Assembly: GCF_058153355.1 (NCBI RefSeq)
Contig: NZ_CM177019.1
Reading direction: 5' to 3' (one strand)
DNA length: 64,000 nt
Shown piece by piece: positions 6,001 to 9,000 of the stretch; within the stretch, counting starts at the first letter, position 1, and every line of letters starts with the position of its first letter. Position numbers: made by a program.

Positions 6001-9000
6001 TCATAATCTTGCGGATATGCCCAATATCGACGTGATCGACGGCCAGGCGGAGTTTATCAATAATCATTGCCTGCGTATTCATCGGCCTGAGGGAAATCTG
6101 GATATTCATGGCGAGAAAATTTTTATTAATACCGGTGCGCAAACTGTGGTCCCGCCAATTCCTGGAATTACCACCACACCAGGTGTATATGACAGCACTG
6201 GATTACTTAATCTAAAAGAATTACCAGGGCATTTAGGTATTTTGGGCGGCGGATATATTGGCGTTGAGTTCGCCTCTATGTTCGCTAATTTTGGCAGCAA
6301 AGTAACCATTTTAGAGGCAGCTTCGCTGTTTTTGCCTCGGGAAGATCGGGATATTGCTGATAATATCGCGACGATTTTACGCGATCAGGGCGTCGATATT
6401 ATCCTCAATACCCATGTGGAGCGAATCAGTCACCATGAAAATCAAGTGCAAGTGCATAGCGAGCACGCCCAACTGGCGGTGGATGCACTGTTAATAGCTT
6501 CCGGTCGTCAACCGGCTACCGCTTCGTTACATCCAGAAAATGCAGGTATCGCAGTAAACGAGCGCGGGGCAATTGTCGTTGACAAGCAATTACATACCAC
6601 CGCAGACAATATTTGGGCGATGGGAGATGTTACCGGCGGGCTGCAATTTACTTACATTTCACTGGATGATTACCGCATTGTGCGTGATGAGTTGCTGGGA
6701 GAAGGCAGACGTAGTACTGATGATCGGAAAAATGTGCCTTATTCCGTATTCATGACACCGCCACTGTCCAGGGTTGGTATGACAGAAGAACAAGCCAGAG
6801 AGAGTGGTGCAGATATTCAGGTGGTGACATTGCCTGTAGCTGCAATTCCGCGTGCCAGAGTGATGAATGATACTCGTGGGGTATTAAAAGCGATTGTTGA
6901 TAATAAAACCCAACGTATATTAGGGGCATCACTGCTGTGTGTTGACTCCCACGAGATGATTAATATAGTGAAAATGGTGATGGATGCCGGGCTGCCTTAT
7001 AGCATATTACGCGATCAGATATTTACTCATCCGTCGATGAGCGAATCACTCAATGATCTATTTTCATTAGTCAAATAAACTCAAAATCAGACGCCAGGAC
7101 AAATATTCTGGCGTCTCAGAGAAAAGAATCTTATTAATTCCTTGTTATTATATAACTTCTTAATCACTTCATTGATGGTATTTTATATGTTTAAAAAACC
7201 TGTTTTATTTGCAACACTATTATCTGGCGTTATGGCATTTTCCACCAATGCAGATGATAAAATAATTCTGAAACATATCAGCGTCTCGTCAGTATCAGCA
7301 TCAGCATCACCGACAGTTCTGGAGGATGCCATTGCTGATATAGCCAGAAAATATAATGCTTCATCCTGGAAAGTCACATCGATGCGAATTGATAATAATT
7401 CAACCGCAACAGCAGTATTGTATAAATAAGGATGTTCACAATGGAAAAATACCTGCACCTGTTAAGTCGGGGAGATAAAATTGGCCTGACATTGATTCGT
7501 CTGAGTATTGCGATTGTTTTTATGTGGATTGGGTTATTAAAGTTTGTCCCTTACGAGGCAGACAGCATTACACCATTCGTCGCAAACAGTCCACTAATGT
7601 CGTTCTTTTATGAACACCCGGAAGACTATAAACAGTATCTGACTCACGAAGGCGAATACAAACCAGAAGCAAGGGCATGGCAATCGGCCAATAATACCTA
7701 TGGTTTTTCCAACGGTCTTGGCGTCGTGGAGGTGATTATTGCTCTGCTGGTTTTGGCTAATCCTGTCAATCGCTGGTTAGGTTTATTGGGAGGGCTGATG
7801 GCATTTACCACACCGTTGGTAACACTCTCATTTTTAATCACCACCCCGGAGGCATGGGTACCCGCATTGGGTGACGCTCATCATGGTTTCCCTTATTTAT
7901 CTGGTGCTGGTCGCCTGGTATTGAAAGATACTCTGATGCTGGCAGGTGCTGTCATGATAATGGCAGATTCGGCGCGGGATATTCTTAAACAACGCAGTAA
8001 TGAATCCAGTTCAACGTTAAAAACTGAATATTGATAATCCGAACACTGTCTGTTGTTCACTTTTTCAGGCGTCAGGCTCCCTTTCTGATGATGAAGCCTG
8101 ACGCCATATTACCGGAGATATGACAGAGTGAAGATCAATATCACTCCCCTGTTAAAAGATTCTTGTCGTCTCAGGTAAAATAAGTGATTAATATCAATCA
8201 TGTATTTTTACAGCAAGACAACCACGAACAAACTCAGGATTAAAATGTTTTACCGATTCCCCAACATAACCCAAATCAAGCGAACTAATTTGCGCCATTT
8301 CTTTCTCTGTCAGTGAGAAATCCCAAATAGCAAAATTTTCTTCGATACGCTGTTGATGTGTCGATTTCGGAATAACGACCACTCCCCGTTGAATATTCCA
8401 ACGCAGAATGACCTGAGAAATCGATTTTTGATGGGCATCTGCAATACTCTGAAGCAGATTATTTTCAAAGGGTTTATGTCGTCCACCACCTAACGGAGCC
8501 CATGCTTCAGGCTGTACGTTATAATACTTCATGGTTGCCAGCGCCTCTGGTTGGGCAAAATAGGGATGCAACTCGACCTGGTTGACCATCGGTTTAACTC
8601 TTACCGTTTCACAAAAGTTCGCCAGAACATGAGGATAGAAATTGGAAACCCCAATTGCTTTTAATTTGCCCTCTTCATAGGCATCTTCGAGTGCACGCCA
8701 CGCACTGAAATAATCGCGCATAGCCTGGTGCAATAAATAGAGGTCGAAGTATTCCAGTCCCGATTTTTTTAATGATGCTTCAATACCTGCTGCTGCAATA
8801 TCCTGATTCAACATATCCTGCACCCACAATTTAGACGTTATAAATAACTCTTCTCGGGTACATAAACCTTCAGATATGGCTTCACAAACGGCTTCACCGA
8901 CGGCATCTTCATTACCGTATACCGCTGCAGTGTCGATGAGTCGATAACCCGTGCGGATAGCATTCAACACTGACTGTTTGCACACGTCTTTATCGGTAAC

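Follow-up and report, generated by a model that had tools for sequence, protein, structure and literature searches.

Two kinds of 3' structure that differ from the textbook terminator have already been described in Escherichia coli, namely 3' stem-loops without a U-tract and collision-type terminators, and the hairpin analyzed here would be an ordinary example. For E. coli transcripts whose termination depends on Rho, Dar & Sorek located the steady-state 3' ends just past stable stem-loops that have neither a U-rich tail nor an upstream A-tract, show a mild C>G enrichment downstream, and shield the RNA from PNPase and RNase II (PMC6061677). REPs make up only 24% of this stem-loop class, and low-U stem-loops are possibly inefficient intrinsic terminators with Rho as backup (Dar & Sorek, PMC6061677). 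As summarised by Wang et al. 2022 (10.1101/2022.10.23.513370), Ju et al. 2019 described bidirectional terminators with hairpins between convergent E. coli genes that are unlike intrinsic terminators, and the hairpin is proposed to pause and position colliding polymerases, not to release them. Such a collision-type mechanism requires simultaneous transcription of both genes, and its efficiency increases with expression (10.1101/2022.10.23.513370).

Here, we analyze a stem-loop between two convergent genes, rclC and an aldo/keto reductase gene (AKR), in a window of 64,000 nucleotides (the whole stretch of DNA analyzed, from contig NZ_CM177019.1 of RefSeq assembly GCF_058153355.1; positions count from its first letter). 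By analogy with the described classes, we give a slightly better than even chance to the proposal that this stem-loop is common to the 3' untranslated regions of rclABC and AKR and defines or protects their 3' ends after Rho-dependent or collision-type termination.

The window is E. coli DNA. The 401 nt around the hairpin (window positions 7900-8300) are 100% identical to strain EC42405, and gene coordinates near the hairpin were taken from the annotation of the EC42405 genome together with the ORF list (Table 1). The genes are arranged in the order rclR (-), rclA, rclB and rclC (+), spacer, AKR (-), a helix-turn-helix regulator gene (+) and fdeC (-). A sequence-only reading of the window had reported a perfect 11-bp inverted repeat with a 16-nt loop at 8068-8105, between rclC (+) and AKR (-). 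The repeat finder returned the same coordinates, with two 11-nt arms that are 100% complementary and separated by 16 nt, and the location agrees with the annotation of the identical genome. The rclC-AKR spacer is AT-rich and 159 nt long; the hairpin lies 33 nt past the stop codon of rclC, which is upstream of it on the + strand, and 88 nt past that of AKR, which is upstream on the - strand. In K-12 and ECC-1470, AKR has shrunk to a 129-nt fragment, which in K-12 is promoterless. The promoter scan returned none in the conserved flank and placed the hairpin far from any promoter, at the 3' ends of rclC and AKR. Two spacer ORFs of 30 aa each (8031-8123, +; 8109-8201, -) are unannotated in all genomes examined; both run across the hypervariable patch of the spacer.

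Table 1. Features of the rclC-AKR junction in window coordinates
Feature	Position	Strand	Basis
rclC, final gene of the rclABC operon	7441-8034	+	Annotation of identical genome, ORF list
Milder C>G-rich stretch past the hairpin, putative	7908-8011	-	C/G 1.57-1.79, about 90th-95th percentile
Hyperdivergent spacer patch, type A vs type B ~23% over ~170 nt	7993-8165		Alignment
Conserved left flank TTGTTCACTTT(T/G)TCA	8054-8067		Haplotype alignment
Hairpin left arm GGCGTCAGGCT	8068-8078		Repeat finder
Hairpin loop CCCTTTCTGATGATGA, 16 nt, type A	8079-8094		Haplotype alignment, folding
Hairpin right arm AGCCTGACGCC, unchanged in all haplotypes examined	8095-8105		Repeat finder, alignment
Conserved right flank ATATTACC(G/T), directly 3' of the stem on + RNA	8106-8114		Haplotype alignment
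C>G-rich stretch past the hairpin, candidate Rho-loading region	8191-8346	+	C/G 1.9-2.25
Aldo/keto reductase CDS (AKR, PF00248), convergent with rclC	8194-9063	-	Annotation
HTH regulator gene	9278-10168	+	Annotation

Eight of the 11 pairs of the stem are G-C (73% G+C). As the 5' half of the loop is pyrimidine-rich and the 3' half purine-rich, the helix can be extended by a few pairs, and these predicted extra pairs reduce the nominal loop of 16-18 nt only partly. The type A form of the window folds at -21.4 kcal/mol on the + strand and -24.8 kcal/mol on the - strand, and across all haplotypes and both strands the fold energy ranges from -19.5 to -26.9 kcal/mol, the latter for the + strand helix of type B with its ~16 pairs and 7-nt loop. 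In its 116-nt context the structure is more stable than shuffled sequences, with z = -3.3 for the + strand and z = -3.6 for the - strand. A larger structure of ~100 nt was suggested by a second, weaker inverted repeat outside the hairpin (8051-8067 / 8121-8137, 76%); we dropped it, as type B alleles conserve neither of the outer arms.

Taken alone, the 11-bp perfect repeat is no more than chance would provide. Per 64 kb, shuffled sequences are expected to hold 0.47 perfect inverted repeats with arms of 11 bp or more (loop 3-30 nt) and 1.6 with arms of 10 bp or more; 36% of the shuffles contain one or more of the 11-bp class, and the window itself contains five. The perfect stem is, moreover, a minority allele: a 62-nt stretch is matched with full identity in just 476 of 5045 genomes. 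That the feature is real is therefore argued from context and comparison.

The hairpin is not a canonical intrinsic terminator, as the sequence-only reading had argued from the lack of a U-run on either strand. Its stem-loop is GC-rich and adequately stable, but a U-rich tract of 7-8 nt directly 3' of the stem is missing on both strands: the 8 nt past the stem hold three U on the + strand (AUAUUACC) and one on the - strand (UGAAAAAG), compared with six U in 8 nt for the canonical terminator after rclC of Salmonella enterica subsp. arizonae (S. arizonae), and on the + strand U never occurs more than twice in a row. The comparison used U counts only; a terminator discriminant after d'Aubenton-Carafa et al. 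scored even the S. arizonae control negative and was set aside as uncalibrated. The nominal loop (type A, 16 nt; type B, 18 nt) exceeds the ~3-8 nt of a short terminator loop, an A-tract upstream of the stem is absent, and the sole T-run (CACTTTTTCA) precedes the stem on the + strand, where it could serve a terminator in neither direction. A consensus scan of positions 7400-8800 likewise yielded no terminator-like site.

An alignment of representatives of each identity class resolved two haplotype families of the spacer, type A (window, K-12, W, E2348/69) and type B, whose loop TTCCTTGCTAATGGGTGA is 18 nt long, 2 nt longer than that of type A, and whose flanks are strongly diverged. Full-B spacers were found in 8 genomes, including ECC-1470. 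Mosaics join a B-type left side to an A-type right side (Z1323HEC, 94-3024) or an A-type left side to a B-type right side (LS45 and, by identity class, SMS-3-5; ~50 genomes), and in both kinds the type switches at the hairpin. In strain LB858871, IS1 is inserted in the hairpin loop. The genes flanking the hyperdivergent patch differ by only ~1-2% between types A and B; the simplest account of the patch would be that a short segment was imported from a different Escherichia lineage. It is in our view very unlikely that the hairpin is the fixed core of a spacer held as two ancient haplotypes in genomes that are nearly identical elsewhere, with its arms as the junction at which half-spacers recombine, and that selection maintains both types, for example to adjust read-through or transcript stability between the operon for oxidant defence and the reductase gene.

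Within this patch, types A and full-B differ at 1 of the 22 arm positions, at 9 of the 16 loop positions (plus a 2-nt indel), and at 28 of the remaining 135 positions (~21%). Divergence of the stem is significantly lower than that of the loop (p = 0.0005), and the contrast between the arms and the remaining patch is marginal (p = 0.054). Together with its flanks, the stem forms an island (8054-8078 and 8089-8114) in which 5 of 51 nt differ as compared to 33 of 122 outside (p = 0.008), yet in 69% of permutations an unanchored scan would come upon a pair of windows conserved to the same degree. As far as these alignments go, the conservation signal is real for the a-priori contrast of stem and loop, yet not overwhelming. 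A conserved stem with a variable loop is the pattern that would be expected of a structure rather than of a sequence motif.

Variation in the stem is confined to two left-arm substitutions among these haplotypes, 8078 T>C (position 11 of the arm; other A-type strains) and 8069 G>A (position 2; B-left haplotypes), each of which gives a mismatch on + RNA and a G.U pair on - RNA. The left arm accordingly ends in ...GGCC in 6 of 6 other A-type strains fetched (K-12, W, E2348/69, TUM1857, PapM32 and 201609), leaving 10 bp and a C.A mismatch on + RNA, or a G.U pair on - RNA. Standard pairing across alleles amounts to 93.9% on the + strand vs 100% on the - strand, and compensatory double substitutions in the stem were absent among the haplotypes examined. 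The G.U-compatible polymorphisms may weakly hint at the AKR-sense strand, with two events only. The strand preference of folding is inconsistent: the - RNA is the more stable in type A, the + RNA in type B.

Beyond E. coli, the hairpin was absent downstream of the rclC or AKR orthologues in the other genera examined. Sequence downstream of rclC in Salmonella, Shimwellia and Serratia differs from that of E. coli, and the AKR orthologues from Enterobacter, S. salamae and further contigs (85-89% identical) stand in different neighbourhoods, each with a 3' hairpin of its own. Co-inheritance of the hairpin with rclC or AKR was therefore rejected, given these other downstream sequences and contexts. 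At the corresponding place after rclC, S. arizonae has another hairpin, one with a U-tract (~-21 kcal/mol), which suggests that the site after rclC is a transcript-end site; the counterpart after rclC in diarizonae has a weaker tail. As a side observation, the divergent RclC clusters P0140, P0143, P0144 and P0146 consist of K-12-like sequences with frameshifts.

Published transcript data from K-12 bear on the junction to different degrees. The Term-seq data of Adams et al. 2021 contain no 3' end at 317.4-317.8 kb, with rclABC silent and the K-12 AKR fragmentary; this absence is uninformative, because the operon is silent and AKR is a fragment there. The only nearby Rho region in the tables of Adams et al. 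lies inside rclB (318344, - strand). In RNA-seq of K-12 under HOSCN, rclC was upregulated 20- to 200-fold and insF1, ~1.3 kb downstream, was not, so that transcription stops somewhere within this ~1.3 kb interval, the pseudogenes directly downstream being left out of that data set. Past the hairpin, C>G-rich stretches occur in both directions (Table 1), set against a window distribution of C/G with a 95th percentile of 1.79 and a 99th of 2.36; the signal is modest and sits in antisense coding sequence.

Our proposal of a shared 3' stem-loop envisages that the overlapping 3' untranslated regions of the convergent rclABC (+) and AKR (-) would both contain the hairpin, which as a palindrome forms in whichever transcript crosses it. 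As it lacks a U-tract, the hairpin probably does not release RNA polymerase unaided. Termination would more likely take place beyond the hairpin via Rho, or at the hairpin via pausing or head-on collision, after which the stable GC-rich stem would halt exonucleolytic 3'-5' degradation by PNPase and RNase II, thereby leaving the steady-state 3' end. The hairpin might also limit antisense read-through into the opposite gene. The proposal builds on the structure and position of the hairpin, its single copy, its stability in all alleles and the pattern of conserved stem and variable loop, all of which are established here. From these we infer that transcripts may end at the hairpin, that one strand may matter more than the other, and that Rho or collision may play a part. 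An RNase protection hairpin is also the one we favour among the three functions that the sequence-only reading had suggested, by its likeness to the class in PMC6061677 and by a stem that is conserved while the loop varies. Several points stand against a 3' hairpin, namely the lack of covariation, the marginal p = 0.054 of the arms, the inconsistent strand preference and the modest C>G signal, as well as a loop of 16-18 nt, larger than in typical terminal stem-loops, and a repeat length within chance.

The conserved stem could serve another purpose, or none. We regard it as unlikely that the hairpin acts on rclABC as an intrinsic terminator of a weak, non-canonical sort, in which the stem and an imperfect AUAUU tail on + RNA would bring about fractional, Rho-free release. 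Types A and B conserve the nine + strand bases past the stem (ATATTACC(G/T)), type B forms the long + helix of ~16 pairs with a 7-nt loop at -26.9 kcal/mol, a true terminator occupies the equivalent position in S. arizonae, and low-U stem-loops may, according to Dar & Sorek, be inefficient intrinsic terminators with Rho as backup (PMC6061677). This is countered by the tail itself, with three U in the first 8 nt and no more than two consecutive, by the empty consensus scan, by the missing upstream A-tract and the T-run on the wrong side, and by the C.A mismatch that weakens the + stem in all A-type strains fetched except the window. It is also rather improbable that the palindrome is fortuitous and functionless, kept owing to the short spacer and the close relationship of the lineages. 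Chance alone supplies 0.47 (at least 11 bp) or 1.6 (at least 10 bp) perfect repeats per 64 kb, the perfect form is the minority allele, covariation is lacking, the arms are only marginally better conserved than the patch, the scan statistic is not significant, and one strain tolerates IS1 in the loop; against this, the stem has changed at 1 of 22 positions and the loop at 9 of 16 (p = 0.0005) within a patch otherwise diverged by ~21%, the two arms persist in all three mosaic and full-B haplotypes, and a stem of 73% G+C in an AT-rich spacer stands at the expected site for 3' stem-loops.

Readings that place the function in the DNA rather than in the RNA fare worse. A double-stranded operator, bound by a dimeric protein at two 11-bp half-sites, would fit the conservation of the arm sequence itself, beyond pairing and without compensatory changes, and AraC-type regulators are encoded nearby (RclR and the HTH gene). 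The half-site spacing, however, is not fixed in length or helical phase; type A has 16 nt and type B 18 nt between the half-sites, a difference that rotates them by ~70 degrees and that dimeric binders tolerate poorly. Half-site centres 27-29 bp apart would be atypical, the position is that of two gene ends remote from any promoter, and AraC-family proteins usually bind direct repeats. We hence hold an operator to be very unlikely, and the protein-binding site named in the sequence-only reading is disfavoured by the 2-bp difference in spacing between natural alleles. The same reading had proposed a REP-like element and called for a search for further copies, which spoke clearly against it. Of the 5426 complete E. 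coli genomes, ~5000-5050 carry the hairpin locus; blastn queries of 105 and 62 nt found a median of one place per genome and a maximum of 2-3 (~5050 genomes), the additional places in a few genomes being F' plasmids or duplications. A REP-core search allowing up to 3 mismatches found nothing overlapping 8068-8105, and Rfam cmscan of 7000-9500 (E <= 10) gave no match overlapping the hairpin. The Z-type REP consensus is GCCTGAT...ATCAGGC, relative to which the hairpin arms, GTCAGGC...GCCTGAC, are inside-out. Among 241 million metagenome records scanned with an arm-anchored pattern allowing any loop, 34 stretches matched; the three in E. coli all represent this junction, and the other matches (about 25) come from GC-rich environmental DNA without relation to it, differ in loop and flanks, and include no related copy. 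One copy per genome and absence from the other genera examined thus rule out a REP-like or other dispersed repeat for practical purposes. The extragenic position between convergent genes, as for many REPs, the MITE-like look lent by the outer inverted repeat, and the change of type at the hairpin in mosaic haplotypes might still recall such a repeat or a mobile-element remnant. With the outer repeat not conserved in type B and the hairpin absent past rclC and AKR orthologues elsewhere, we consider the chance of this to be close to negligible.

If confirmed, the shared 3' stem-loop would mark where the rclABC operon, which provides defence against reactive chlorine and hypothiocyanite, and the adjacent reductase gene end on their 3' side. 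The known class of U-tract-less 3' stem-loops between convergent E. coli genes would gain one more example, of little importance beyond annotation. The natural allelic series, with its perfect stem, its C.A/G.U stem, its loops of 16 and 18 nt and its loop disrupted by IS1, could serve as a test set for the weight of stem strength and loop size in 3'-end protection or collision-type termination.

Compared with described systems, the hairpin resembles REP/BIME elements as an extragenic imperfect palindrome between convergent genes, of a type able to stabilise upstream mRNA. Unlike these elements, which occur in hundreds of copies per genome, it is single-copy and without the REP consensus. With the intrinsic terminator of S. 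arizonae it has in common the position relative to rclC, a GC-rich stem and a similar free energy; it differs from that terminator in the lack of a U-tract, the long loop, the T-run on the wrong side and the absence of sequence homology. From the terminators of Ju et al., which need both genes to be active, the hairpin departs in that rclABC is silent without oxidant. It agrees with them in the convergent gene pair, in a shared 3' region that encodes a hairpin on both strands, and in having no resemblance to an intrinsic terminator. The stem-loops of Dar & Sorek are typically smaller in the loop than the nominal 16-18 nt found here, and the present hairpin is common to two convergent genes. 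As in their class, however, it is a stable, GC-rich stem-loop without a U-rich tail or an upstream A-tract, it is not a REP, and it stands directly past a coding region, with a modest C>G bias downstream that may correspond to theirs.

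The spacer between the convergent genes rclC and AKR (an aldo/keto reductase gene), at 7993-8165, occurs in two haplotype families, A (among others the window and K-12) and B (for example strain ECC-1470), that diverge by ~23%, whereas the flanking genes differ by only 1-2%. In mosaic alleles of both orders, B-left/A-right and A-left/B-right, the change of type is located at the arms of the hairpin in this spacer. Candidate origins of the B patch are import, balancing selection and local hypermutation. Hairpin and spacer are kept in K-12 (L002) and ECC-1470 (L047) despite reduction of the AKR gene (8194-9063 in the window) to a 129-nt 3' fragment in both strains.

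Two IS1 insertions were found in this region, one in strain LB858871 (L039) within the hairpin loop (equivalent to ~8088) and the other in strain C3728 (L029) within the 3' end of rclC (equivalent to ~8000). These natural disruptions could serve as knock-outs.

An 11-mer arm pair identical to that of the rclC-AKR hairpin is present in five soil metagenome contigs (L051, L052, L055, L070 and L074), where it sits within tandem heptamer-like GGCTTCA / GGCGTCA repeats. The contigs are GC-rich, environmental and unrelated, and their repeats probably constitute a separate, unrelated family. Within the window, the hairpin at 58559-58581 has arms that are REP-like in look (Table), yet it stands alone, resembles a terminator and is not a REP array.

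The hairpin that follows rclA lacks a U-tract on the + strand and is a possible 3'-end or stability element within the rcl operon. Published RNA-seq under hypothiocyanite (HOSCN) places rclA ~5-15x above rclB and rclC. For uninduced cells, Adams et al. (2021, supplementary file 2) list a Rho termination region within rclB, scored at 3.9.

Table. Hairpins and termination region in the window.
Feature	Window position	Strand	Structure or source	Context
ykgH-ykgG hairpin	1157-1197		14-bp perfect	between convergent ykgH remnant and ykgG
rclA-rclB hairpin	7089-7116		9-bp GC-rich perfect, AGACGCCAG / CTGGCGTCT, loop 10	directly past rclA stop, ahead of rclB
Rho termination region	within rclB (rclB at about 7190-7429)	-	MG1655 coordinate 318344; Adams et al. 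2021	rclB
HTH-fdeC hairpin	10223-10255		14-bp perfect stem, 5-nt loop, T-rich on both sides	between convergent HTH regulator gene and fdeC
REP-like-looking hairpin	58559-58581		TGCCGGATGC / GCATCCGGCA, 3-nt loop, then CTTTTCAC	

The ykgH-ykgG hairpin shares its unusual flank with the rclC-AKR hairpin: on the + strand CTTTTTCA directly precedes the stem, so that the - strand reads UGAAAAAG past it. With only two such cases, this likeness could be coincidence. The HTH-fdeC hairpin has the look of an ordinary bidirectional terminator, in contrast to the rclC-AKR hairpin.
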